Source: Candidatus Saccharimonas aalborgensis (GTDB lineage: Bacteria; Patescibacteriota; Saccharimonadia; Saccharimonadales; Saccharimonadaceae). Taken from it: a stretch of 32,000 nucleotides of DNA. The translations under genes were made by a program, and so were the position numbers. Positions 1 to 10,422 of this stretch are shown in pieces; positions within the stretch are counted from its first letter, which is position 1; each line of letters begins with the position of its first letter. Under the pieces are notes generated by a model, which saw only the letters and a list, made by a program, of their open reading frames with translations, was not told the DNA's origin and did not search any database. The stretch lies in contig NC_021219.1 of assembly GCF_000392435.1 (NCBI RefSeq), forward strand, positions 480,001 to 512,000, read 5' to 3'.

Positions 1-2
1 AT

Positions 3-968
3 ACTGTTGCGCCAACTGCCAGCATAACTCCACTCCTCAGCAACTCGGGCTCACCAGCCCTCTCTGGCGCTGTCTCAGACCCATCAGCGACGGTTACCGT
101 AACTGTCAATGGTACGACATACACCGCTACCAACAACGGCGACGGCACCTGGAGTCTGCCAGCTGGTACGATAGCACCAGCACTTGCCGACGGGCCCTAT
201 GACATCGTCATAACGGCAACTGACGGCGTGGGCAATACGGGTACCGACAGCACAGCCGACGAGCTAACGATAGACAAAACTGCTCCAACCGGTTCGCTTG
301 CTCCGGTGGCTCCGGGTATTACCAACAGCCCAGCCCTCTCTGGCACCGTTTCAGATCCTTCGGCGATTGTCACCGTGACTGTCGATGGCACGACATACAC
401 CGCTACCAACAACGGCGACGGCACCTGGAGTCTGCCAGCTGGCACGATAGCACCGGCACTGAACCCTGGCACGTACGATGTGGTTGTTTCATTCACAGAC
501 ACCGCCGGTAACACGTCAACCGACCCGACAACCAATGAGCTGGTTATCCAGCGTAGCGATGCCGACCTCCCAACGGTGAATCCACTCAGCGCCTCAGGCG
601 GCCAGCCGATTATTACCGGAACCTATGACGCCGAAAACAGCCAAAGCCTGTCAGTCACCGTCAATGGTGTTGCGTACGTGCTCGGGGTTGCAACACAGCT
701 TACGGTCAGCGGCAATACCTGGAGGCTCGATCTTAGTTCGCTGAGCCCAGCACTTCCTGCTGGCGCTTATGACGTGAAGGTAGCAGTTACGACACGAGGA
801 GGAGCGGTGCTTGGCGATAGTACAGCAGCAGAGCTAGTACTGAGTGCGCCAGCAAACCCCCTAGCCAGTACTGGATTATCCATCATTGTGCCGACAGTCT
901 TCGGACTGGCACTCATTGTCACGAGCATGGTGCTTATATATCGCGCGAAACAACACAATAAGTTCTAG
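3..968 (+). CDS. Surface adhesin-like protein with tandem bacterial Ig-like repeats and a C-terminal LAxTG sortase signal (5' end outside window)
   Basis: The frame is open from nt 3, with no stop before the tracked Met at 228, so the gene enters from the left edge. It carries a repeating ~92-aa unit, SPALSG.VSDPSA.VTVTV.GTTYTATNNGDGTWSLPAGTIAPAL...TD..GNT, typical of adhesin Ig-like domains. The C-terminus is LASTG, then a hydrophobic helix (LSIIVPTVFGLALIVTSMVLIY), then a basic tail (RAKQHNKF). Confidence 0.85.
   Translation, partial: TVAPTASITPLLSNSGSPALSGAVSDPSATVTVTVNGTTYTATNNGDGTWSLPAGTIAPALADGPYDIVITATDGVGNTGTDSTADELTIDKTAPTGSLAPVAPGITNSPALSGTVSDPSAIVTVTVDGTTYTATNNGDGTWSLPAGTIAPALNPGTYDVVVSFTDTAGNTSTDPTTNELVIQRSDADLPTVNPLSASGGQPIITGTYDAENSQSLSVTVNGVAYVLGVATQLTVSGNTWRLDLSSLSPALPAGAYDVKVAVTTRGGAVLGDSTAAELVLSAPANPLASTGLSIIVPTVFGLALIVTSMVLIYRAKQHNKF
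55..461 (+). repeat. Intragenic tandem repeat with a 276-bp (92-codon) period
   Basis: 55-185 aligns with 331-461. The perfect 53-bp core is 114-166 = 390-442 (acgacatacaccgctaccaacaacggcgacggcacctggagtctgccagctgg). The flanks are diverged. Confidence 0.9.
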
Positions 969-1046
969 TAGGGCCTCATCAATCTTTCCTCCCTTTATGT
1001 TGTCGTGTAGCTCTGTAGTGCATCGTAGCACTGAATGGAAAATTGC

Positions 1047-1442
1047 CTATTTCTCAGTGACGTTGACTGTAACGGTTTGTTCACCGCGACCATATTTACT
1101 GTCGCAAGTAAGATGAAAAGTGTACGGCCTTACATCATTCAGGCGTCCAGTACTAGCACTTCCCGTCGAAGTTTTCTCGCCGCTCCAGTCTCCATCCGCC
1201 TTACAACTTTGTGCCGCTCCAACAACAGACCAATTAAGTACACTATACTGTCCAACCACCTGCTGTTGTGGTTCGACGGACAATGTGATGACAGGAGGAG
1301 TACCTTGTGCTCCCGATGTTACAACAACCGAGCTATCATTAACATTGTTAATCTTTGAGAAAAACACCCCCTTCACCAAGATAAGACCCGTAACAGCCAT
1401 TGTTACAATTATCACAACACCGACAGTTCTCTTTATCCACAT
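1047..1442 (-). CDS. Membrane-anchored protein with a single two-Cys Ig-like domain, a paralog of the repeats in 3486-4958
   Basis: N-terminal TM helix (VGVVIIVTMAVTGLILV). The domain motif is LNWSVVGAAQSCKADGDWSGEKTSTGSASTG...YTFHLTC...TVTVNV, the same pattern that occurs three times in the 490-aa neighbour. A GGAGG Shine-Dalgarno (SD) sequence lies 4 nt upstream of the ATG at 1442. The gap to the upstream gene is 12 nt. Confidence 0.8.
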   Translation of the reverse strand: MWIKRTVGVVIIVTMAVTGLILVKGVFFSKINNVNDSSVVVTSGAQGTPPVITLSVEPQQQVVGQYSVLNWSVVGAAQSCKADGDWSGEKTSTGSASTGRLNDVRPYTFHLTCDSKYGRGEQTVTVNVTEK

Positions 1443-1454
1443 ATATCCTCCATA

Positions 1455-2855
1455 TTACATTGAAAATTCTTCGCTATGTATACTAGTACGGGGAACGCCC
1501 CTGTCTTGAAGTTGCACTTTCAGCGCTCGCATCATGCTAGGAGGACCGCATAAGTACACGTCTCGTCCCACAATGGTTCCTGAAACTCTCTCTATATAAT
1601 CAAGGTCAAGTAATGACCCTTGTTCATCCCCGATAAAGGGCACAACACAAAGGACATCTCTTCTGAGGGCCACCTCACTCGCAAGGAGCTCCCAGTCAAT
1701 TATTTCGCTCCTGGTCTTAACTGAATAGAACAAATATACCCTGTACCCGACCGAAGGCAAATCTTTGATCATCGAAATGAACGGAGTGATTCCTATACCT
1801 CCGGCGATCCACACCTGATCCCTGTTGTCATAGTTGGCATAGTTGAATTTTCCGTACGCACCCTCAACTTCTGCGATTGTGCCGGGCTGTACCTGCAAGA
1901 GCCTACTTGTGTAATCGCCTAAGGACTTAATTGACAATTGCAAATCCGAGTCTACCTGTGAGGATGATGATATTGAAAAAGGGTGCCACTCCCGGCCAAC
2001 ACCTGCGGTATGCAGGAATCTGATAAAAACAAACTGACCTGACATATAGTTAAATGCACGACCATTTGGGGTAAGATAGAATCTAACAACACCCGACCCA
2101 AGGTCTGATACTCTGTCGACCACAAAATGATATTTCCTGATCAAGATCTGACCCATAAGGGTTCGGTAAATAAATGCAATACAACCGACAACAACCGCGC
2201 CGAGCAGATACCATTTTAATAACGTATCATCAGAGGTGTCACTCTGGATAAAGAAAATATGCAGTGCGATCATCAAAAAAACAAGACCGAGGAACTTATG
2301 TGAGATGAGCCAGATTCTGTAGGGAAGCTTTATGAAAATCGTAACAAGCAATAAGCCAACCATCAACCAGAGCGCCAATATACCCATGAAAATCGCCCAT
2401 TTGTCGAGAACAACCCCGTGTAATACATGTGAGGTATCGAAAAGTGCCGACCATGGAGTAAGACCGCCAGGCAAGAGAAATAGTGCAGCGTCTCTCACGC
2501 TACTTTCTGAGCGCATGAGTGCTAGCCCCAGCGGGTGTAGCAGCGTAAAAATTAGAGAAAAGCTACCTACGATATGATGCGTAATATACACATGATTCAG
2601 ACCATCAAAAAGCCACTCGAGTATTCTCATACGGGTCATCAAGACAAGGCTAAGTGAGTAGAGAACGGTTCCCACGATGCCCGAGATCAGGCCTATGTTT
2701 TCCATTGTCTGTCCTGGCGTTCCCCACAAATTTCCTGTTTGAATACGCCACCACAAGAAGACGGGGATCAGAGTCAGGACAGCAATCATGGCCCAGCCTA
2801 TCAGGGAACCAAGCCTAAAGCTGATCGTTACTTGCTTGCGGGTACTATTGTGCAT
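1455..2855 (-). CDS. NOX/FRE-family transmembrane flavocytochrome: ferric-reductase di-heme TM domain plus FAD- and NAD(P)H-binding dehydrogenase domain
   Basis: The N-terminal half is multi-TM and carries two His pairs with NOX spacing: THHIVGSFSLIFTLLH (H-x13-H) and HKFLGLVFLMIALH (H-x12-H). FAD motif HPFSISS, NAD(P)H motif AGGIGITPF, and C-terminal CGPPSMM, as in the FNR/NOX dehydrogenase domain. Confidence 0.85.
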   Translation of the reverse strand: MHNSTRKQVTISFRLGSLIGWAMIAVLTLIPVFLWWRIQTGNLWGTPGQTMENIGLISGIVGTVLYSLSLVLMTRMRILEWLFDGLNHVYITHHIVGSFSLIFTLLHPLGLALMRSESSVRDAALFLLPGGLTPWSALFDTSHVLHGVVLDKWAIFMGILALWLMVGLLLVTIFIKLPYRIWLISHKFLGLVFLMIALHIFFIQSDTSDDTLLKWYLLGAVVVGCIAFIYRTLMGQILIRKYHFVVDRVSDLGSGVVRFYLTPNGRAFNYMSGQFVFIRFLHTAGVGREWHPFSISSSSQVDSDLQLSIKSLGDYTSRLLQVQPGTIAEVEGAYGKFNYANYDNRDQVWIAGGIGITPFISMIKDLPSVGYRVYLFYSVKTRSEIIDWELLASEVALRRDVLCVVPFIGDEQGSLLDLDYIERVSGTIVGRDVYLCGPPSMMRALKVQLQDRGVPRTSIHSEEFSM

Positions 2856-2879
2856 ATTCGTCAGGAAGCATTTCTTATA

Positions 2880-3470
2880 TTAATGGAGGACATCAATAAC
2901 TAATGGCACCGACTTATCCCAGCCGGTATCGACGTAAAGGAGGGATGTCGCGACCGTAGACGGCACAACAAACGTTATCTGTCCGTTCAGAGTCTCTTCT
3001 GGGTCAATTTCTTGAGCGGGGATGGGCGTTGTCGCATAACTAGATATATGAAGCGCACTGTAGGTACCCTCCTCGCTGCGTACATATAGATGATTTACCG
3101 GGATGAAGTGTTGACGTTTTTTTGTTTTATTTTTGATAGTTATGTCCATGGCCAGTATTTTTTGTGAACTATCGATTGGAAATACTTGATCAGTTTCATG
3201 CATTGCAACGTTACGCACCTGGGCCTGGACTGAGCCGTTATCTGCCATCTGTAAAGATGTGGTCGAACTGGGGTATATAGTTACCGGCTGGTAGGGCGTT
3301 CCATGGACTATAATTCGAACAATAAACACAGTGTTGAGCACCACTAGCGTTGTTATGCCTAAAACAAATGCTGCGAAAAGCAAGCTATGTTGATGACGAA
3401 ATCTTTCAAATCTTTCGTTTGCTGTCGGTTTACGAAACCTGAATATTCTTTTTACTATGCCCTTGGTCAT
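2880..3470 (-). CDS. Membrane-anchored exported protein, DUF4352-like beta-sandwich
   Basis: N-terminal basic region plus TM helix (LLFAAFVLGITTLVVLNTVFIV). The C-terminal pattern ILAMDITIKNKTKKRQHF...LYVRSEEGTYSA...ETLNGQITFVVPS resembles DUF4352. A GGAGG SD lies 5 nt upstream of the ATG at 3470. Confidence 0.65.
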   Translation of the reverse strand: MTKGIVKRIFRFRKPTANERFERFRHQHSLLFAAFVLGITTLVVLNTVFIVRIIVHGTPYQPVTIYPSSTTSLQMADNGSVQAQVRNVAMHETDQVFPIDSSQKILAMDITIKNKTKKRQHFIPVNHLYVRSEEGTYSALHISSYATTPIPAQEIDPEETLNGQITFVVPSTVATSLLYVDTGWDKSVPLVIDVLH

Positions 3471-3485
3471 CTTTTCCTCCCATCA

Positions 3486-4958
3486 CTATGGTTTTGATGC
3501 ATCGTAGTACCCAACCCTATAGCCTATCAGCGCACTCGATGTTGTGTTATTGATCGTATCAGACTTGTGCGAGAAGGTAGAGTTGGATCGTTTATCCTTG
3601 TAGCCAGGTATACTTGCAGAGCCTTTGAGGATAGAGTTGATGCTGTGATTGCAGGTTGCGCCAGCGTTCTCAAGTGTGGATGATGATCCTGACATAATAC
3701 CGCCTTTGTGAACAGGTGAGTAGCTTGTTATGTTTATGACCCAATCATTATTCCATGCCCAACAGTTACCCACTGAAGCGTGCGCTGCGAGGTCACTCTT
3801 CCCGTAACAGGGTGTCTTACCAGCACAGTACACTGGTGCGGGGTTGACGGTCAGGCTGACCGATTTCGTACCCGTACCGCCACTGTTTGCGCAGGATAGC
3901 GTGTACGTATAAGTACCGGTCGTCTTACTTCCCGTACTTTGTGACCCGCTGGATGCTTTTGAACCCGTCCAGCCACCTGTGCCTCCGGCTGTGCAACTCG
4001 TAGGGCTGTTTGTCACACTCCACGAGAGAGTGGCTGCCGATCCCGAAAGGATGGTAGCTGGGCTTATAGACAGGCTCACCACTGGAGGACTGACGACGGG
4101 CGCATTTGCCGAAACAGTTATGTTAGTAGTCGCAGTTTCCGAACCAGCACCGTTGCTGCACGTCAGTGAATAGCTAAATATGCCAACACTTGACAGCGTT
4201 CCCGTACTTTGTGACCCGCTGGATGCTTTTGAACCCGTCCAGCCACCTGTGCCTCCGGCTGTGCAACTCGTAGGGCTGTTTGTCACACTCCACGAGAGAG
4301 TGGCTGCACTACCAACCTTTATACTATTAGGTGTAATCGTAAGCGAAACTTTTGGCCTTGTTGCCGTATTGCCTGAACCAGTATTTTGCGTTGGCGCAGG
4401 AGTCTGTGGCTCTGGGTTTACTACTGGCACCACATCTCCCACGGCTATACTGACAACCGCAAAGCTTGTCGCCCTCCCAGTAGAGCAGGTTAATGTGAAT
4501 AAGTATATTTTCGGCTTATCGAGGCTAGTAGAGGTCTCATTGCCTTGTACCGATTTGTCGCCAGACCAATCATCGCTCGCCGAGCATCGTGCCGAATTGT
4601 CCGAGACGCTCCAGGTGAGGGTTACCTTTTCACCAATGGCTACTGCCTGCTTGTCAGATGTCAGTGTTATCGACGGCATAACGGGTACCGTCTCGGGGTT
4701 TATTGCATCTGGTGTCATTTGCCCGCTAGTTAACCCGTCAAGGCTGTATGTTGATCGGAAGCTTTGGTTACTCACTAATATGCTGACCACTATAATTGCA
4801 ATCATACTAAGGATCGTCACTATCGACGTAAGAGCAACAATAATTTGCGTTAACCGGACCCCCTTGGGCAGTTGATTAATTGGGAAACTCAGCACGATTG
4901 TTTTTAGCACAACATCTAAGCCTAATCTTTTATTCCTTGAATTGTTATATTTTAGCAC
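3486..4958 (-). CDS. Membrane-anchored exported protein: three two-Cys Ig-like domains plus a C-terminal cytochrome-b5-like heme/steroid-binding domain (putative)
   Basis: TM helix (IIVALTSIVTILSMIAIIVVSILV). There are three copies of the motif (V/A)TL(T/S)WSV...C.A...W(S/T)G.K...G..ST......Y.(F/Y).L(T/S)C. The last ~114 aa read DLAAHASVGNCWAWNNDWVINITSYSPVHKGG-x17-CNHS, which parallels the b5 pattern H....(D)CW....G.VYD(V/L)T.F...HPGG...GHS. The start is uncertain: the tracked start at 4958 is GTG with no clear SD. Confidence 0.75.
   Translation of the reverse strand: MLKYNNSRNKRLGLDVVLKTIVLSFPINQLPKGVRLTQIIVALTSIVTILSMIAIIVVSILVSNQSFRSTYSLDGLTSGQMTPDAINPETVPVMPSITLTSDKQAVAIGEKVTLTWSVSDNSARCSASDDWSGDKSVQGNETSTSLDKPKIYLFTLTCSTGRATSFAVVSIAVGDVVPVVNPEPQTPAPTQNTGSGNTATRPKVSLTITPNSIKVGSAATLSWSVTNSPTSCTAGGTGGWTGSKASSGSQSTGTLSSVGIFSYSLTCSNGAGSETATTNITVSANAPVVSPPVVSLSISPATILSGSAATLSWSVTNSPTSCTAGGTGGWTGSKASSGSQSTGSKTTGTYTYTLSCANSGGTGTKSVSLTVNPAPVYCAGKTPCYGKSDLAAHASVGNCWAWNNDWVINITSYSPVHKGGIMSGSSSTLENAGATCNHSINSILKGSASIPGYKDKRSNSTFSHKSDTINNTTSSALIGYRVGYYDASKP
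3929..4307 (-). repeat. 109-bp perfect direct repeat at a 270-bp (90-codon) spacing inside the Ig-repeat gene
   Basis: 3929-4037 is identical to 4199-4307 by direct comparison of the two stretches. The repeat encodes ATLSWSVTNSPTSCTAGGTGGWTGSKASSGSQSTG in both the second and third domains. Confidence 0.95.
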
Positions 4959-5526
4959 AAGTACAATGTCTTCTCATAATTGGGCGCACCTGGTAGCCTA
5001 CAGTCTTAGGCATTTGCCTACCTAGTACGCGAAATCGAACTCATTAGCAGAGCTACAAAATGTTTGACAGTTTCGGGTAATGTAACCCTATCGGTACAGA
5101 TCCATGTCAAAGGAGGATGATATGGATATGTACAAACTTAACCAAGTACCGAACGAAACCAAGATCAAAATGTGCTTACACCGTGTTCTCTATGGCGGCA
5201 AGAATATATTGTCCAGAATGCCGTAGATGCCTTGTCTGCTGCTATGAAGACCGCAATCGTTGCAAACGGTGGCCTGGGCAGCATAATGTCGACACACATA
5301 AATGCTTTGAGTTCGGGCAGACGAGCGAACAAGAGAGGATGTTTGGCTGTATGAGAACCCCAATCTGCAGAATGTATCACCACATCACACCAGAAACGGC
5401 CACAGACTACGTGAGTGAATTTTGTGTCAGATTTTCCACACCAGAATTATTCGAATCACTCCATAAATATTTAGATAGAACACTAATTTTTGTACTAAGA
5501 GGTTGACAGTACCCGCAGTTTCGCTA

Positions 5527-5555
5527 TTGACATAATAATTATGTTTTGGTATCAT
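5527..5555 (+). promoter_or_regulatory. Candidate sigma70-type promoter for the phosphoesterase gene
   Basis: TTGACA (5527-5532), a 17-nt spacer, then TATCAT (5550-5555), about 67 nt upstream of the ATG at 5623. Confidence 0.35.
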
Positions 5556-5622
5556 TCGGGTTACACAGAGATATTTGTGCGGTGAGCATAGAGAAAAGAA
5601 AAATAAAAAACGGAGAAATAAA

Positions 5623-7602
5623 ATGAAACTGTATCGTCCTGGTTTATCAAGGCTAATTGTGAGCCGCCTGGCTTTGTTTGGTGTTGTCATCGCTTTTGCG
5701 GTAAGCGTGATGAATATGAGCAGCTTCTTAGTAAAAGCAAGCCCTGTAGCTTTCTCGTTCGGTACCGGTGGCGATCACGGTAATCATCCAGATTCTCAGG
5801 GGGTTTTTGAGGCAGCTGGCCAGTCTGGGATTAGCTTCTTTCAGACAAATGGGGATATGAGTTATCTTGATAGCCCAACCAATAACATAAGCACTGCGAC
5901 AACCGAGTGGTGCTCTATGGTCAATAGCAAGCTGGGCTCCATACCGTTCCTTGCCCTCAATGGTAACCATGAAGAGCCAGGACATGCCGGAGTTGACGGC
6001 GATAATATCGATAACATCATCAGTGGCGGATGCCTTCCAAAGCCGGCATCAATGAATGTCGTGGAATCACCTCTTACAACAGGGAGTGCTGGAACTACAC
6101 CCACAAATTACGGACGTGAGTACTACTATGATTATCCGTCTGTAAATCCGATCGCTCGATTTATCGCCGTCTCGGCTGATATTGATACATATGTTGGTGG
6201 CAACTATGACTATAGCGTAGGCAGTGCTCACTACAACTGGGTGCAGGCTCGCATACAAGAAGCAAAAGCGTCGGGGATGTGGGTAATCGTCATAAATCAC
6301 ACGCCGATCATGAATACCGGTGGTTCGCATGGTGGTACCGACTACTCTACCGTTACTCCTCTCTTTAATCTAGCTATCGATGAGAAGGTCGATCTGTTTC
6401 TGTCCGGCCATGAGCACAACTATGAGCGCAGTAAACAAATAGGAGGTGCTAGCTGTAACTACACATTCAATACCTATAGCGCAAACTGTATCGCTGATGC
6501 AAATGCAAACACCTATACGGCTGGAAATGGTACGATTGCAGTGATCACGGGCTCAACAGGAGGAAACTACAATACCGGTGATGGCCTTATGATAGCGATC
6601 AATGCAAGTGACCCGGATTATCAATATTTCGCCACTACTATGGGACGGGGTTCTGCGGATGAGACACGTGGTTTTTCTAAGTTCGATGTCACCGAAACAA
6701 GCATTACGGGTCACTTTGTGGCAGGCGTTGGCCAAACCGGAGGCTTTACAGATACCTTCACCATCACTCGTAACGATACCACTGCACCAACCGTTAGCCT
6801 GGATACGCCGACGACGGGTACGGTAAGTGGAATGGTTAACATGGCAGCAACAGCAAGCGATGCAGTTGGTGTCACAAAAGTCGAGTTTTACCAGGGTGCA
6901 ACAAAGCTCGGTGAAGATCTGTCGTCACCATACGCCTACGGCTGGGATACTACATCGGTCGCAAATGGTAATTACAGTCTAACTGCAAAAGCATTCGATG
7001 CCGCTGGGAACATTAGTACAAGTAGCGCAGTCAGTGTGACAGTAAGCAATGGCGGTGGAGGGGGTGCTACGACATCGAGCTTTACTGTGGCGGGAGCTAA
7101 TAATTCTTCGGTAACCTTTACTGTGGCGGGCCCGTGTAACAATATTACGTCTCACGAGGTCGCCGATGCCTCCAAGGCACCAACAGGTCAGACCTTGCTT
7201 GCGAGCGCCGACTTCTCGATGTCATGTGCATACGCCGGTGATGCAACAACTGTTGTTATAAATCTTGGTGCAACTTACGATACATCTCATCTTCGAGTTC
7301 ATAAACTCGCTGGGTCAACCTTGACCGATATCACATCGCACGCTACTTTCGGAACCGATGGTAACTACACTACCGTGACCTATACTGTGACGGATGGTGG
7401 GTTCGGTGATGAAGACACCCTTGCGAATGCTATCGTTGTAGATCCTGTGTATGTCACCGTTGCTGGTGCATCAACAACTGGCCCCGGAGTGCTTGCGGAC
7501 ACCGGTACCAATAGCGTACTGCTGACGATAGTCGGAGTTGTCGTGGCTGTTCTCGGACTAATCGGAGCCATAACCTCTAGGGTTAAACGCGTTACTCTAT
7601 AG
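5623..7602 (+). CDS. Cell-wall-anchored metallophosphoesterase (purple-acid-phosphatase-like) with Ig-like domains and an LAxTG sortase signal
   Basis: PAP/calcineurin-like motif set: GGDHG, GDMSY, GNHE, VINHTP, GHEHNYER. A signal peptide follows the ATG at 5623 (MKLYRPGLSRLIVSRLALFGVVIAFAVSV), and a GGAG SD sits at 5612-5615; the tracked start at 5575 is TTG. An Ig-like domain is present (VGVTKVEFYQGATKLGEDLSSPYAYGWDTTSVANGNYSLTAKAFDAAGN). The DGGFGDEDTLANAIVVDP motif is followed by LADTG, a hydrophobic helix and RVKRVTL. Confidence 0.85.
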   Translation: MKLYRPGLSRLIVSRLALFGVVIAFAVSVMNMSSFLVKASPVAFSFGTGGDHGNHPDSQGVFEAAGQSGISFFQTNGDMSYLDSPTNNISTATTEWCSMVNSKLGSIPFLALNGNHEEPGHAGVDGDNIDNIISGGCLPKPASMNVVESPLTTGSAGTTPTNYGREYYYDYPSVNPIARFIAVSADIDTYVGGNYDYSVGSAHYNWVQARIQEAKASGMWVIVINHTPIMNTGGSHGGTDYSTVTPLFNLAIDEKVDLFLSGHEHNYERSKQIGGASCNYTFNTYSANCIADANANTYTAGNGTIAVITGSTGGNYNTGDGLMIAINASDPDYQYFATTMGRGSADETRGFSKFDVTETSITGHFVAGVGQTGGFTDTFTITRNDTTAPTVSLDTPTTGTVSGMVNMAATASDAVGVTKVEFYQGATKLGEDLSSPYAYGWDTTSVANGNYSLTAKAFDAAGNISTSSAVSVTVSNGGGGGATTSSFTVAGANNSSVTFTVAGPCNNITSHEVADASKAPTGQTLLASADFSMSCAYAGDATTVVINLGATYDTSHLRVHKLAGSTLTDITSHATFGTDGNYTTVTYTVTDGGFGDEDTLANAIVVDPVYVTVAGASTTGPGVLADTGTNSVLLTIVGVVVAVLGLIGAITSRVKRVTL

Positions 7603-7901: not shown

Positions 7902-8522
7902 TTCTGGAAAAATCCGTATTTGGTGGCTCCGTATTCCAATTGATATGGCGATTGATACCAACGTATTCTTTAGGGTAACCGCCGAACGGTTGAAAAGCTC
8001 CGGAAATGACGGGCCGAACGTGCCGTAAATTGATGCTGTTCCCCAACTGAATTGTGCGCCCTGCGCTTTCGCCCAATCCCACAACTTATGAACAACCTCA
8101 CTCTGCGCTTCGCTTACAAAGATATAGACTCTCACTCATCGAGCCTTGAGCGCATTAACAGCGAGCTTAAAGAGCTACTGGTAATGCGGACAAGGGGTCT
8201 AATCGATGACAATGAATATCTAGAGCAAAAAACGTTGCTCTTGGAAGAGTTAGAGTCTGGCAAATCGAAACTAGAGAGATTGAAGTCAAACCCGAGCAAG
8301 GGTGCAAAAGAGACAATCTCACTACTTAACTTCATCCGTAAGGCACAAGATAAATTCAATGGCGGTCAGATATCAGAGCGTAGAGAACTGATAACAATGT
8401 TCGGTCAGAAACTCGATTTATTGTATAAAGAGCTAACTTTCACCCCTGTTAATTGGTTAATCCCGATCAAAGAAAACTATTCTAACGCTAGAACGTCAAT
8501 TTCTTGCGTTAGAACCGCATAA
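7902..8522 (+). pseudogene. Decayed large serine recombinase: C-terminal portion only, with frameshifts and stops upstream
   Basis: 8130-8522 reads like the coiled-coil and tail of recombinase-family proteins: LERINSELKELLVMRTRGLIDDNEYLEQKTLLLEELESGKSKLERL...LLNFIRKAQDKF...RRELITMFGQKLDLLYKELTF. Weak recombinase-like snippets sit in two other frames and end in stops: FWKNPYLVAPYSN* (7902-7943) and FFRVTAERLKSSGNDGPNVP* (7966-8028). No N-terminal catalytic resolvase domain is visible anywhere upstream. Confidence 0.55.
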
Positions 8523-8540
8523 TTCTAAAGATTTACAGAT

Positions 8541-8573
8541 TGAAAATAAACAAAAAGTCTCCGAAGAGACTTT
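8541..8573 (-). terminator. Intrinsic terminator downstream of tRNA-Asn (the hairpin could also serve the plus strand)
   Basis: On the minus strand: AAAGTCTC-UUCG-GAGACUUU, an 8-bp stem (8554-8561 / 8566-8573) with a UUCG tetraloop, followed by TTGTTTATTTTC. Confidence 0.7.
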
Positions 8574-8583
8574 AAAATTCACT

Positions 8584-8658
8584 TGGCTCCGGCAGCTGGG
8601 CTCGAACCAGCGACCTAATCGTTAACAGCGACCCGCTCTACCACTGAGCTATGCCGGA
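8584..8658 (-). tRNA. tRNA-Asn (anticodon GTT), 75 nt with encoded CCA
   Basis: Hand-folded cloverleaf: acceptor TCCGGCA/TGCCGGA, D arm GCTC-AGTGGTA-GAGC, anticodon arm GGTCG-CTGTTAA-CGATT (two G-U pairs), variable loop AGGTC, T arm GCTGG-TTCGAGC-CCAGC, discriminator G, CCA. Confidence 0.9.
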
Positions 8659-8669
8659 ATACAAGTGCT

Positions 8670-8698
8670 ATTGTATAGCATCTCTCTATCTCTGTAAA
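8670..8698 (-). promoter_or_regulatory. Candidate promoter for tRNA-Asn
   Basis: On the minus strand: TTTACA (8698-8693), a 17-nt spacer, then TACAAT (8675-8670). The -10 element ends 11 nt upstream of the mature tRNA 5' end. Confidence 0.5.
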
Positions 8699-8700
8699 TA

Positions 8701-10422
8701 TCACTGTACGTGCAAAGCGTCGAGCTGTCGGGCAAGTTCCGCGATATTTGCCCACGACGAACCATCTGTCATGATCGCTAGTACATACGTGCCGCTCGGA
8801 CTATACACGATAGCAGCATCATGGAGTAAGCCGTCCATAAATCCGACTTTGTCGGCAACCGCGCCATTCACTCCCGAGGGAATCCCGCGCCGATACACAT
8901 TCGCTTTCATCGCGCCAATCAGGCGTTGTTGATTGATCGTCGAATAGTTTTGGCCAGTGGCAATCATACCCAGCATTAGCGAGAGGTCGTTTGCAGTCGT
9001 AAACGGACCGCCGGACTTCATAAAGGTCGAATTGCTGAGACCGACCGCATGAATATCGTTTGTAATCGTCGATAGACCAAGGGTTTTTAGAAACGCTTCT
9101 GCACACGCATTGTCGCTGAGACTAATCATCTTGTTGAAACAATCGGCATTGGTGGCCCAATCACGCTTACCTTCATCAATCTGCTTGAGCAACGTATAGG
9201 CGGCAAAAAGTTTGTAGGTGCTCGCCGTTACAAATTGCTTGTTGCCATTGTAATCGGCCCGCCGACCCTTGCCCCCCAGTTCGATCATCGAAATACCGTA
9301 CACTCCTGAGTGATCGTGAGCATAATTTGCCATCAAGGCCGACATACCGGTGTCACTCGGACTATAGGTGCGTGTATATTGCTCGCTGGGCGGGATAGCT
9401 TTTACCCGCGCAGTTGCTTGCTCCCCCGTACCCGAAACGACACCCTGGATAGTAGCAATCGTGGCTGGTGTGTCAAGCGCTTGGCCGCTGGCGCCATTGA
9501 CACGCGATATCTCGGTGAAATCTCTTGTGGTAATACGCGAGACACCAGCTTGGACTGCAACTTTTGACGCCACGTTCTTTTGTAACCAATCTCCTGCTCT
9601 ATCGCCGTTTACTACTGCTACCAGGTTGCCGTCTTTTTGCGAGAAATCGAGCCACGAAAATAGCTCCTGCGCCCCAATGCTAATGGAGCTACCCCCTACT
9701 AGCATGCTTATTCCAGCACCGATCCGCGTATTGAGTTCATCGGCGGCCCGCTGCGCGAGGGTATCTGTAATCACCGGTGCGGTTTCTTTCATCGCCACCC
9801 TGACTGATGATGGTGTTGTCAGCACGGGCTTGAGTTTTTTGATCGTTGAGAGTACTTCATCTTGCTCGCATTGACCGCCGGTCTTTGACGGCACAAGCTC
9901 GAGTCGAGCGCCATTTGCCTTGAGGGTAGCGTCGACAGGATTTGTTTGACACTCCGGCATGATATGAGCGTTTATGTAGTCATCATAATTATCACCGACA
10001 GTCGCATCGGGAACGACCGTCGACTTCTTTGCTGCCCACCACAGCGACGTCGGGACGAGTCGTAAGTACCACGGATAATCAAGCTGGCTAATGCGGTCGG
10101 TGTTATCTACCTTGATATCCAACTCAGACAAAGTAGGCGATACGACTGATGCTTCACGGTTTCCCATATAAATGCTGACGTGATGTTTGCTGTAGGCATC
10201 ATTGAGCGTTGCTATCGCGTCGCTCTTTTTTTGACCGCCAAGATTCACGCCATCTATCGTTACAAAAGGAAGCAGCCTATCTGAGGGATAGAGAAACTGC
10301 ATCACCAACAGAGCGATGACGAGACCTGCCCCTCCGATAAGTGCGATGCGCTTCCACGAATATTGCTTTAGTCGCATCCAGAAACGCACTACTACTGCGC
10401 GAACACGTTGCATAACTTTCAT
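8701..10422 (-). CDS. Membrane-anchored serine hydrolase: a large exported N-terminal region plus a C-terminal class-A beta-lactamase/PBP-like domain
   Basis: N-terminal TM helix (IALIGGAGLVIALLVMQFLY). The C-terminal domain carries SxxK (ASTYK), SDN (SLSDNAC) and a KxG-like triad (ADKVG), in the order expected for the class-A beta-lactamase fold. Confidence 0.75.
   Translation of the reverse strand: MKVMQRVRAVVVRFWMRLKQYSWKRIALIGGAGLVIALLVMQFLYPSDRLLPFVTIDGVNLGGQKKSDAIATLNDAYSKHHVSIYMGNREASVVSPTLSELDIKVDNTDRISQLDYPWYLRLVPTSLWWAAKKSTVVPDATVGDNYDDYINAHIMPECQTNPVDATLKANGARLELVPSKTGGQCEQDEVLSTIKKLKPVLTTPSSVRVAMKETAPVITDTLAQRAADELNTRIGAGISMLVGGSSISIGAQELFSWLDFSQKDGNLVAVVNGDRAGDWLQKNVASKVAVQAGVSRITTRDFTEISRVNGASGQALDTPATIATIQGVVSGTGEQATARVKAIPPSEQYTRTYSPSDTGMSALMANYAHDHSGVYGISMIELGGKGRRADYNGNKQFVTASTYKLFAAYTLLKQIDEGKRDWATNADCFNKMISLSDNACAEAFLKTLGLSTITNDIHAVGLSNSTFMKSGGPFTTANDLSLMLGMIATGQNYSTINQQRLIGAMKANVYRRGIPSGVNGAVADKVGFMDGLLHDAAIVYSPSGTYVLAIMTDGSSWANIAELARQLDALHVQ

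Follow-up and report, generated by a model that had tools for sequence, protein, structure and literature searches.

Can a Saccharibacteria (CPR) cell pass electrons outwards across its envelope? The question is raised by four minus-strand genes of Candidatus Saccharimonas aalborgensis in a 32,000-nt stretch of DNA, analysed as a whole and referred to here as the window. A preliminary description had read these genes as a candidate trans-envelope electron-export module, in which a NOX-type flavocytochrome is accompanied by three exported proteins, one with a b5-like domain. The four genes are closely packed, as described, with coordinates in agreement with intergenic gaps of 12, 24 and 15 nt, and their predicted features are as follows.

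3486–4958, minus strand: 490-aa type II-anchored exported protein with a transmembrane (TM) segment at about aa 39–57, three Ig-like modules and a C-terminal cytochrome b5-like domain
3846–4676, minus strand: three tandem Ig-like modules (aa 95–171, 195–281 and 290–371)
3489–3824, minus strand: cytochrome b5-like domain (aa 379–490)
2880–3470, minus strand: 196-aa DUF4352 beta-sandwich protein with an N-terminal anchor; a GGAGG ribosome-binding site lies ahead of the gene
1455–2855, minus strand: 466-aa SpNOX-type flavocytochrome (NAD(P)H to FAD to two b hemes)
2142–2813, minus strand: ferric-reductase-type TM domain of six helices (aa 15–238)
1458–2135, minus strand: cytoplasmic dehydrogenase domain (aa 241–466) with the motifs HPFSI (FAD), GIGITP (NAD(P)H) and CGPP
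1047–1442, minus strand: 131-aa protein, N-terminally anchored, with a single Ig-like module (Cys80/Cys113)

Gene spacing is what suggests co-transcription as an operon; promoter and terminator scans returned results at chance level. The 131-, 196- and 490-aa proteins each carry a single N-terminal hydrophobic segment with basic residues ahead of it, in line with the earlier view of all three as anchored and exported. Pfam searches of the operon found no MsrP, FMN-binding or ApbE genes, and no two-component system was found in the window.

Sequence and structural modelling together identify the 466-aa protein as a predicted SpNOX-type di-heme flavocytochrome. All the hallmarks of the NADPH-oxidase/ferric-reductase family first listed for it are present, including the His pairs H93-x13-H107 and H186-x12-H199 and the motifs HPFSI at residue 291, GIGITP at 353 and CGPP at 436, and every sequence filter of Hajjar et al. 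2017 (PMC5676040) retains it. Pfam PF01794, PF08022 and PF00175 (Ferric_reduct, FAD_binding_8 and NAD_binding_1) score above cut-off; of the profiles originally proposed, PF01794 and PF08022 are therefore recovered, but PF08030, the NOX-type NAD-binding domain, falls below its threshold (20.1 vs 22.2 bits), and it is the general PF00175 profile that the dehydrogenase domain matches. Profile searches and predicted fold agree on placement in the FRD/NOX family with SpNOX closest: SpNOX is the best sequence match among solved structures (E 1e-31), and the AF2 model (pLDDT 79) matches it over its full length (TM 0.85, E 3e-24), with DUOX1, NOX5 and NOX2 ranking after it. The four heme histidines, presumably H93 and H186 for the inner heme and H107 and H199 for the outer, are invariant in 28 orthologs (49–76% identity to the window protein), as their proposed role would lead one to expect, and the extracytoplasmic loop C (aa 116–145) and H146 are also conserved.

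SpNOX, the Streptococcus pneumoniae NADPH oxidase (PDB 8qq7, 8qt6; Hajjar 2017, Petit-Hartlein 2024, Dubach 2024), resembles the window protein in architecture: a single chain joins a di-heme FRD domain of six TM helices to an FNR-type FAD/NAD(P)H domain, and the bis-His spacing, HPFS and GIGxTP are common to both. Identity is only about 23%, however; the window protein is 67 residues longer and has a strongly conserved extracytoplasmic TM3–TM4 loop and an invariant H146. It also has a dedicated adjacent b5 gene, whereas neither PMC11564096 nor PMC5676040 names a partner gene for SpNOX. The outer heme of SpNOX is solvent-exposed and the enzyme directly reduces cytochrome c under anaerobic conditions, and its authors propose a protein acceptor (PMC11564096).

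The C-terminus of the 490-aa protein is, on sequence and model, a divergent cytochrome b5 domain and a putative heme binder. Its PF00173-type score is sub-threshold (13.2 bits in the whole protein and 17.7 bits for the isolated domain; cut-off 23.7), but the assignment is supported by the family to which the domain belongs, by its predicted fold and by the retained ligand positions. Jackhmmer groups the domain with canonical b5 domains in one homologous family, 55 of whose 75 members match PF00173 (best E 2.4e-24). H417, in VHKGG (the HPGG equivalent, here drifted to HKGG), and H464, in SHK (the HS equivalent), are the putative axial ligands; the HPGG-position His is invariant in A3, and the HS-position His nearly invariant in A3 and invariant in A2. 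Conservation extends to a Cys pair, C399/C436; this pair and C378/C384 are likely disulfides. The AF2 model (pLDDT 77.5, with long low-confidence insertions at pLDDT 55–59) finds its top PDB match in 1cxy, a bacterial cytochrome b558, with b5 structures ranked next; each of these matches has probability 1.0. The b5-like domain first described thus stands in family, fold and both axial His positions, although not by its PF00173 score, and heme binding would follow from these features. Cytochrome b558 of Ectothiorhodospira vacuolata, titled a prokaryotic homologue of cytochrome b5 in its PDB entry, is a free soluble protein of 81 residues with no known NOX partner, whereas the window domain contains two long insertions and is linked through Ig modules to a membrane anchor.

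These Ig-like modules, which match BatD/DUF11 and PKD weakly in Pfam, would act as a stalk or tether. Each contains exactly two Cys (125/158, 232/267 and 322/356), and residues 43–129 of the 131-aa protein match all three repeats (E about 1e-13 each), substantiating a disulfide-type Ig module, with paired Cys, common to two of the partners. The GTG start of the 490-aa ORF at 4958 is uncertain, with in-frame alternatives at codons 17 and 22. The 131-aa protein is the ortholog of a ~250-aa Ig and b5 gene that follows NOX in other Saccharimonadales; it has no b5 domain in the window or in the closest relative, L001, and no b5 remnant was found downstream of its gene. The membrane-proximal Ig and b5 gene has lost its b5 in the window lineage, leaving the sole b5 on the three-module stalk. 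How a b5 on such a stalk reaches the outer heme of NOX is hard to explain. The 196-aa protein, likewise described correctly as a DUF4352-like beta-sandwich (33.8 bits; cut-off 25.9), is the ortholog of a DUF4352 gene downstream of the long Ig–b5 gene in other Saccharimonadales; with no conserved His, Cys or Met it probably has no redox centre, and would probably be a non-redox scaffold or binding partner.

Gene linkage is the strongest result for the NOX–b5 pairing. Among 80 species-level NOX loci, 78 of them informative, a b5 gene lies inside the NOX cluster in 63 and immediately downstream of NOX in 60, two of the latter counted after allowing for over-extended ORF calls. Measured from the NOX stop codon, 58 b5 genes start on the same strand at −47 to +183 nt, with a median gap of 4 nt and a 4-nt overlap in 19 loci. 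A b5-like gene that has diverged further (hhalign probability 93.7%) is present in seven more loci, so that once divergent domains are modelled 70/78 have a b5 or b5-like neighbour and eight have none. The loci span many CPR lineages, DPANN archaea and Chloroflexota MAGs, extending the synteny first suggested for related genomes to distant ones, so that the pairing recurs in ultrasmall bacteria and archaea alike, and all b5 proteins of NOX clusters have an N-terminal hydrophobic anchor. Ig stalks, of up to seven modules, and the DUF4352 partner are additions in the Saccharimonadia form. No Pfam family is shared by more than four of the 148 flanking genes, which argues that the module moves as a unit. 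ApbE adjoins NOX in two DPANN loci that have no b5, consistent with swappable outside partners.

This linkage bears directly on whether the enzyme is instead a stand-alone, O2-reducing NADPH oxidase, whose superoxide or peroxide would serve against the host as weapon or signal, or whose O2 consumption would be protective; the b5, Ig and DUF4352 proteins would then be co-located surface proteins with another role. SpNOX does oxidise NADPH with O2 as acceptor (PMC5676040, PMC11564096) and the window protein has every NOX sequence hallmark, but an unrelated neighbour would not stay adjacent, often overlapping, in 60/78 loci of CPR, DPANN and Chloroflexota amid otherwise variable flanking genes. 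Many of the module MAGs are labelled groundwater or sediment in their titles, many of these probably oxygen-poor, and the SpNOX authors themselves doubt O2 as the physiological acceptor (PMC11564096); we regard this alternative as decidedly unlikely.

The same flanking genes bear on an assimilatory metal reductase, in which the same NOX–b5 chain would serve metal uptake by reducing Fe(III), Fe(III) chelates or Cu(II) outside the cell, the proposal differing in that it names the terminal acceptor. The TM domain belongs to the ferric-reductase family, the ferrous transporter VIT1 accompanies a subset of MsrQ-like clusters elsewhere (PMC8238504), and Fe(III) reduction was speculated upon in a 2021 preprint (10.1101/2021.11.17.468889). 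Nevertheless, the 148 genes flanking the 80 modules include no recurring iron/metal-uptake family (MgtE occurs twice), Feo, VIT1, ZIP and NRAMP are absent from the 25 most frequent flanking families listed, no such family was found in the 32-kb window, and SpNOX's direct ferric reductase activity is very weak (0.05 per s; PMC11564096), which together make this fairly unlikely. No terminal acceptor or iron transporter linked to the module was found among the 148 genes.

Comparable partnerships have been reported. The NOX–b5 co-location in CPR was already noted in 2021, when ferric-reductase/cytochrome-b5 (pFre-b5) clusters were assigned a putative CPR-specific function and a membrane complex was proposed (Hehenberger, Cahill et al., bioRxiv 10.1101/2021.11.17.468889); the window operon is a variant. 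The preliminary description, which knew of no characterisation of this gene combination, is thus right as to experiment but not as to the co-location. In both cases a ferric-reductase-domain gene is co-located with TM-anchored b5-domain genes, but that study centred on Tyr-ligated, MAPR-like cytb5MY with a two-component system, whereas the window b5 is bis-His and below the Pfam cut-off. In the Pfam search of that study only 185/1427 pFre genomes had a b5 within a 10-kb distance, and no such clusters were reported outside CPR (10.1101/2021.11.17.468889). Here, with divergent b5 modelled, adjacency is near-universal (70/78 loci) and is also seen in DPANN and Chloroflexota MAGs; further differences are the Ig stalks and DUF4352 partner added in the Saccharimonadia form and the absence of a two-component system from the window. 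MsrPQ (Juillan-Binard 2017) and flavinylation-associated MsrQ-like systems also combine an FRD-family di-heme membrane protein, often with a fused NAD-binding domain as in the window enzyme, with a neighbour-encoded extracytoplasmic redox partner (Meheust et al. 2021, PMC8238504). Extracytosolic flavinylated partners accompany those MsrQ-like proteins that have NAD-binding domains (PMC8238504); in MsrPQ and MsrQ-like systems the partner is not b5 but the molybdoenzyme MsrP or an FMN-binding protein flavinylated by ApbE, and MsrQ itself draws on quinol or Fre.

We consider it probable that the operon encodes a minimal electron-export chain, self-contained up to its terminal acceptor. The flavocytochrome would transfer hydride from cytoplasmic NAD(P)H to FAD, from which single electrons would cross the membrane through the inner (H93/H186) and outer (H107/H199) hemes to the heme of the b5-type domain as immediate acceptor. 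Anchored in the same membrane by its N-terminal helix and held out on a stalk of disulfide-bonded Ig modules, the b5 would reduce a terminal acceptor located on the cell surface or further out, with O2, a metal chelate or a host-cell redox partner as candidates. Domain identities, ligand positions, outward topology signals and very strong cross-phylum gene linkage are computational observations, whereas occupation of the heme sites, passage of electrons from NOX to b5, the direction of that passage and the terminal acceptor are inferred. The FRD/NOX fold, invariant His, synteny and b5 fold accordingly favour the export reading first put forward, with transfer from NOX to b5 as its putative step.

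Heme supply counts against the export chain: CPR bacteria are not generally known to synthesise heme, and each chain would thus have to scavenge three. The same general absence of heme synthesis could favour a very improbable alternative, in which the b5 is a stalked, hemophore-like module for heme capture or handling in a heme-auxotrophic episymbiont, NOX electrons releasing heme or iron; a stalk of up to seven Ig modules might reach the host surface, and heme discharge by the related Tyr-ligated cytb5MY proteins has been speculated upon (10.1101/2021.11.17.468889). The window domain, however, has the bis-His positions typical of stable electron-transfer b5 rather than MAPR-type Tyr ligation, and no heme transporter linked to the module was found in the window or the flanking genes.

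An inward chain, drawing electrons from the host surface or environment via b5 and NOX onto NAD(P)+, appears extremely improbable: it has no direct support beyond the dependence of an episymbiont on its host, and the midpoint potentials of NAD(P)H, the NOX FAD and hemes, and b5, as generally known, strongly favour outward flow. Outward direction has been demonstrated in proteoliposomes, and characterised family members all run outwards (PMC11564096).

On the export reading, the net effect would be to regenerate NAD(P)+ and place reducing power at the cell surface without a quinone-based respiratory chain. The NOX–b5 module offers a candidate for the protein acceptor that SpNOX structural work proposed may exist, and the pairing probably moves electrons out of cells that have no respiratory chain.

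Four tightly packed minus-strand genes, separated by spacers of 15, 24 and 12 nt as the preliminary description had proposed, form the operon, listed here from its upstream end:

3486-4958, minus strand: 490-aa protein with Ig modules and a b5-like C-terminal domain
2880-3470, minus strand: 196-aa DUF4352 protein
1455-2855, minus strand: 466-aa NOX-type flavocytochrome (NOX)
1047-1442, minus strand: 131-aa protein with one Ig-like module

GGAGG ribosome-binding sites lie upstream of the 196-aa and 131-aa genes, and for the 490-aa gene the start position is uncertain. Across 800-5700, promoter and terminator scans returned the same counts as in shuffled sequence, so it is from the gene spacing that we infer co-transcription.

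Placement of the 466-aa protein in the FRD/NOX family is borne out by profile matches and by SpNOX as the nearest solved structure in both sequence and fold. Ferric_reduct (PF01794) scores 38.9 bits against a cut-off of 28 over aa 58-196, with FAD_binding_8 (PF08022; 42.2 bits) and NAD_binding_1 (PF00175; 31.6 bits) also above cut-off; the NOX-specific NAD-binding family PF08030, anticipated earlier, reaches 20.1 bits against 22.2 with a match confined to aa 349-366, and the dehydrogenase domain scores as the general PF00175 type. Both proposed His pairs are present, H93-x13-H107 and H186-x12-H199, within model helices 86-115 and 179-202, as are the FAD and NAD(P)H motifs (HPFSI at 291; GIGITP at 353), and the protein passes all sequence filters for bacterial NOX of Hajjar et al. 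2017 (PMC5676040), whose His criterion asks for two His-x12-14-His pairs in TM3 and TM5 with 20 or more residues between them. The four heme-ligand positions H93, H107, H186 and H199 are invariant in 28/28 orthologs (49-76% identity to the window protein); H94, adjacent to H93, H146, and much of the extracytoplasmic helix 3-helix 4 loop are likewise invariant. In the AF2 model (pLDDT 79) an FNR-like domain comes after six long helices; a sequence search of solved structures finds SpNOX nearest (E 1e-31), and Foldseek returns full-length SpNOX, 8qt6 and 8qq7 (TMt 0.85, E about 1e-24), then DUOX1, NOX5 and NOX2. The 466-aa protein joins the SpNOX-like bacterial NOX group as a new member, and by analogy with the SpNOX ligands (H69/H129 inner, H83/H142 outer; PMC11564096) the inner heme would sit on H93/H186 and the outer heme on H107/H199. 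The loop at aa 116-146, near-invariant over the 28 orthologs (L127, P129, P134, A137, L138, H146), is modelled, H146 included, at low AF2 confidence despite this near-invariance; the conserved outer loop with H146 may be a docking or acceptor site.

The last 112 residues of the 490-aa protein, described beforehand as a b5-like putative heme domain, fall below the PF00173 cut-off of 23.7 bits, scoring 13.2 in the whole protein and 17.7 in isolation. Among homologous neighbour domains, 55/75 match PF00173 (best E 2.4e-24), jackhmmer unites the window domain and clearly canonical b5 domains in one family, and a profile search, used in place of a single-sequence search that recovered two proteins only (a word-index limit), finds database relatives annotated as cytochrome b5. 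The axial His positions are kept as H417 (VHKGG, at the HPGG position) and H464 (SHK, at the HS position), together with a Cys pair; in two alignments of the b5-domain family the HPGG-position His is invariant (A3) and the HS-position His invariant (A2) or near-invariant (A3). AF2 structure prediction, run with database proteins, gives a model with pLDDT 77.5 and pTM 0.74, two insertions being of low confidence, whose closest PDB match is the bacterial b5 homolog 1cxy and whose top 25 PDB matches are all b5 domains (probability 1.0, TMt about 0.65-0.7). Family membership, the kept His and Cys columns and the predicted b5 alpha/beta fold together identify the domain, despite its sub-cut-off Pfam score, as a divergent cytochrome b5 domain and a putative heme binder.

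All three partner proteins carry one N-terminal hydrophobic segment after basic residues, indicating an N-in, C-out anchor in line with their predicted export. The Ig module shared between two of them holds up as described: the single copy of the 131-aa protein has three counterparts in the 490-aa protein (E about 1e-13 each), with exactly one Cys pair per copy. DUF4352 (PF11611) is matched in the 196-aa protein at 33.8 bits against 25.9 (aa 76-180), and DUF4352 genes recur downstream of b5 genes in 32 loci; since no His, Cys or Met is conserved across 56 sequences, a redox role for this protein is unlikely, and a redox or metal-ligand role was dropped. Neither the 196-aa nor the 131-aa protein gave a meaningful match in sequence searches of the PDB, and none of the three partners matches the MsrP, FMN-binding or ApbE families.

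Conservation of the pairing, which carries the most weight as evidence, was surveyed in the best 80 of at least 550 loci with NOX-gene relatives in species-representative genomes, using ORFs from our own simple calls and searches whose E-values hold for that small set only. A b5-domain gene is present in 63/80 loci, and in 58 of these its start, on the NOX strand, falls within -47 to +183 nt of the NOX stop codon (median gap 4 nt; a 4-nt overlap in 19). In the other five, the b5 gene adjoins NOX if over-long ORF calls are allowed for (L004, L078), is the second gene downstream (L015), or lies just upstream (L001, L046). Two loci end too early to judge, leaving 78 informative. Seven of the 15 remaining loci encode, adjoining NOX, an anchored protein with the motif RCLYIYN..VYEKGT..PH..NPCGTDVT and no Pfam match, which is related to the b5 family by profile-profile comparison (hhalign, probability 93.7%, E 1.9e-7), with Cys and His columns aligned. 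Counting both families, a b5-type gene stands beside NOX in 70/78 informative loci and is absent in 8/78, in keeping with the expectation that these neighbours would be syntenic in related genomes. The loci derive from CPR bacteria (Saccharimonadia and a wide range of further groups, among them WWE3, Woesebacteria, Paceibacterota, Nomurabacteria, Magasanikbacteria, Buchananbacteria and a complete Campbellbacteria genome) and, beyond CPR, from Pacearchaeota, a closed 2.3-Mb Chloroflexia chromosome and a Dehalococcoidia MAG, MAG labels not being reliable in every case.

The full motif of the RCLYIYN family, TCfT..V..DsRCLYIyN..VYEKGT..PH..NPCGtDVT..IP..H...LDPNY.G.IC, contains four Cys (three invariant, one nearly so) and two invariant His, and Pro/Thr-rich linkers often follow it. 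Its members may be the 'cytb5-like type A/B' proteins of a 2021 preprint (bioRxiv 10.1101/2021.11.17.468889).

Members of the RCLYIYN family (coordinates within each locus)
L034: 6371-6943, minus strand
L036: 8345-10453
L037: 1467-2159
L044: 8371-9069 and 6351-6959
L045: 8373-9209
L049: 7416-8120 and 5398-6003
L053: 355-1194

Variation on the partner side takes several forms. A Woesebacteria locus (L046:4826-6214, minus strand) encodes three tandem b5 domains in one anchored protein divergent from NOX, and a Nomurabacteria locus (L069:8281-9195) two tandem b5 domains in one anchored protein; a relay function would suit such predicted multi-heme chains. Among DPANN archaea, two loci lacking b5 have ApbE (flavin transferase) just upstream of NOX and, just downstream, a small, anchored protein of low complexity whose sequence ends in ...RTTRAS or ...RRTRAS, which together may constitute a flavinylated alternative partner; this arrangement suggests that the outside partners of NOX are interchangeable. 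ApbE also occurs 1.5-4.5 kb upstream of NOX in four Saccharimonadales loci (L004, L005, L006, L012).

ApbE and small anchored protein genes in two DPANN loci (coordinates within each locus)
L059: 6139-6984, ApbE; 8314-8670, small anchored protein
L066: 6114-7022, ApbE; 8326-8649, small anchored protein

The usual Saccharimonadales order is NOX, a ~250-aa protein with an anchor, one Ig module and b5, one or two DUF4352 genes, a ~820-aa protein with an anchor, seven Ig modules and b5, and a final DUF4352 gene. The 490-aa and 196-aa genes of the window are orthologous to the distal Ig-b5/DUF4352 pair (E 1e-52 and 1e-47 against locus L009), here with three Ig modules and relocated upstream of NOX; the 131-aa gene is orthologous to the proximal Ig and b5 gene, minus its b5 domain. 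A six-frame HMM search of window 1-1500 found no decayed b5 domain after the 131-aa gene, so that one b5 domain is left in the window lineage. L001, the closest relative (76% NOX identity), shares the layout of the window, and L015 has an intermediate arrangement.

The remainder of the window is occupied by surface-protein genes and a Wzm/Wzt-type surface-glycan cluster. Divergent from the operon, 5575-7602 (plus strand) encodes a protein of 675 aa that combines a calcineurin-like metallophosphoesterase domain and a Big_7 Ig domain with a hydrophobic anchor at the C-terminus, and a homolog of identical domain content adjoins the operon in the closest relative too (L001:2588-4567); convergent with the operon, 228-968 (plus strand) is the 3' end of a surface-protein gene with Big_13/Big_15 Ig domains and a C-terminal anchor. 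GC content is 56% in window 1-1000, compared with 44-51% across the rest of the first 25 kb, and drops to 41-43% from ~25 kb on, a stretch that may be an acquired segment. A 573-aa protein (8701-10422, minus strand) has a class-A beta-lactamase-like domain at its C-terminus (aa 425-552) and ~400 N-terminal residues without a Pfam match. From 10440 to 31494 a LexA-like repressor is followed by the glycan cluster, whose genes include Wzy_C, a Bac_transf initiating transferase, a 1135-aa GDSL-lipase-domain protein, GT4 transferases, GlmS, a nucleotidyl transferase, an FG-GAP protein, UDP-GlcNAc 2-epimerase, a 727-aa methyltransferase-glycosyltransferase fusion and the Wzt/Wzm ABC exporter.

Across the surveyed loci no Pfam family occurs in more than 4/148 genes flanking the module of NOX and its b5-type partner; the flanking genes vary while the pair stays, and the pair thus behaves as a mobile unit. 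The same count bears on what the electrons would be exported for, iron reduction having been one proposal: no iron or heme transporter or regulator family exceeds 4/148 flanking genes, and iron, heme and respiratory genes are absent elsewhere in the 32-kb window. A role in iron uptake is weakened by this lack of a linked iron transporter and ranks below general electron export.

The operon resembles clusters already noticed in CPR genomes, in which a PF01794 gene ('pFre') is co-located with one or more TM-anchored b5-domain genes; by the source names of homologs the window itself belongs to Candidatus Saccharibacteria, order Saccharimonadales. The 2021 preprint on MAPR origins counted b5 by Pfam in 185/1427 pFre genomes, none outside CPR, and called the function unknown (bioRxiv 10.1101/2021.11.17.468889); a Vampirococcus paper mentions cytochrome b5 in CPR in passing. 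The ancestral state proposed for pFre-b5 has a Tyr-ligated cytb5MY and an adjacent two-component system, whereas the window b5 has His at both ligand positions and the window ORFs that were scanned include neither a histidine kinase nor a response regulator. The earlier statement that no characterisation of the gene combination was known stands for function, literature searches having found no functional study of a ferric reductase/NOX in Saccharibacteria or Patescibacteria; the combination itself had already been noted. As MsrQ serves MsrP and MsrQ-like proteins serve flavinylated partners (PMC8238504), an FRD protein would here serve an extracytoplasmic partner; unlike those systems, the window operon has no MsrP, FMN-binding or ApbE partner, ApbE appearing only in some related loci. 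What is new is that the linkage becomes near-universal once divergent b5 domains are modelled, that it extends into DPANN and Chloroflexota, that Ig stalks and DUF4352 are added in the Saccharimonadia architecture, and that it is tied to the question of which acceptor SpNOX uses. At Pfam thresholds b5 partners are greatly undercounted, since both the Saccharimonadia b5 domains and the further b5-like family score below cut-off.

In the most likely mechanism NAD(P)H would reduce FAD, from which electrons would travel via the inner and then the outer heme to the tethered extracytoplasmic b5 and on to an outside acceptor; cofactor binding and activity of both proteins are predicted from sequence and models. 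The initial steps follow from family membership, and the step from NOX to b5 is suggested by gene linkage, topology and published observations on SpNOX, namely an exposed outer heme, direct cytochrome c reduction without O2 and a suspected protein acceptor (PMC11564096). One speculation is that the length of the Ig stalks enables outward electron relay by the b5 domains.

A large part of microbial diversity consists of CPR bacteria and DPANN archaea, which, to our knowledge, are described as being without electron transport chains; nor do we know of a physiological acceptor for bacterial NOX homologs. The gene linkage names a specific candidate for that acceptor, and a predicted two-gene chain from NAD(P)H to an outside heme protein, kept across CPR and DPANN, would explain simply and testably how NAD(P)H is reoxidised and how oxygen or metals are handled. 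A broader proposal, advanced tentatively and more probably wrong than right, is that bacterial NOX homologs have in the tethered b5 their long-sought physiological acceptor, that NOX and b5 form the sole redox chain across the membrane in many CPR bacteria and DPANN archaea, and that the b5 domains of Saccharimonadia, borne on stalks of one to seven Ig modules, act as swinging carriers from the membrane across the wall to the host-cell surface or an outside oxidant. Were this so, 'non-respiring' episymbionts would gain an electron sink outside the cell, and their dependence on the host would be shaped by it.
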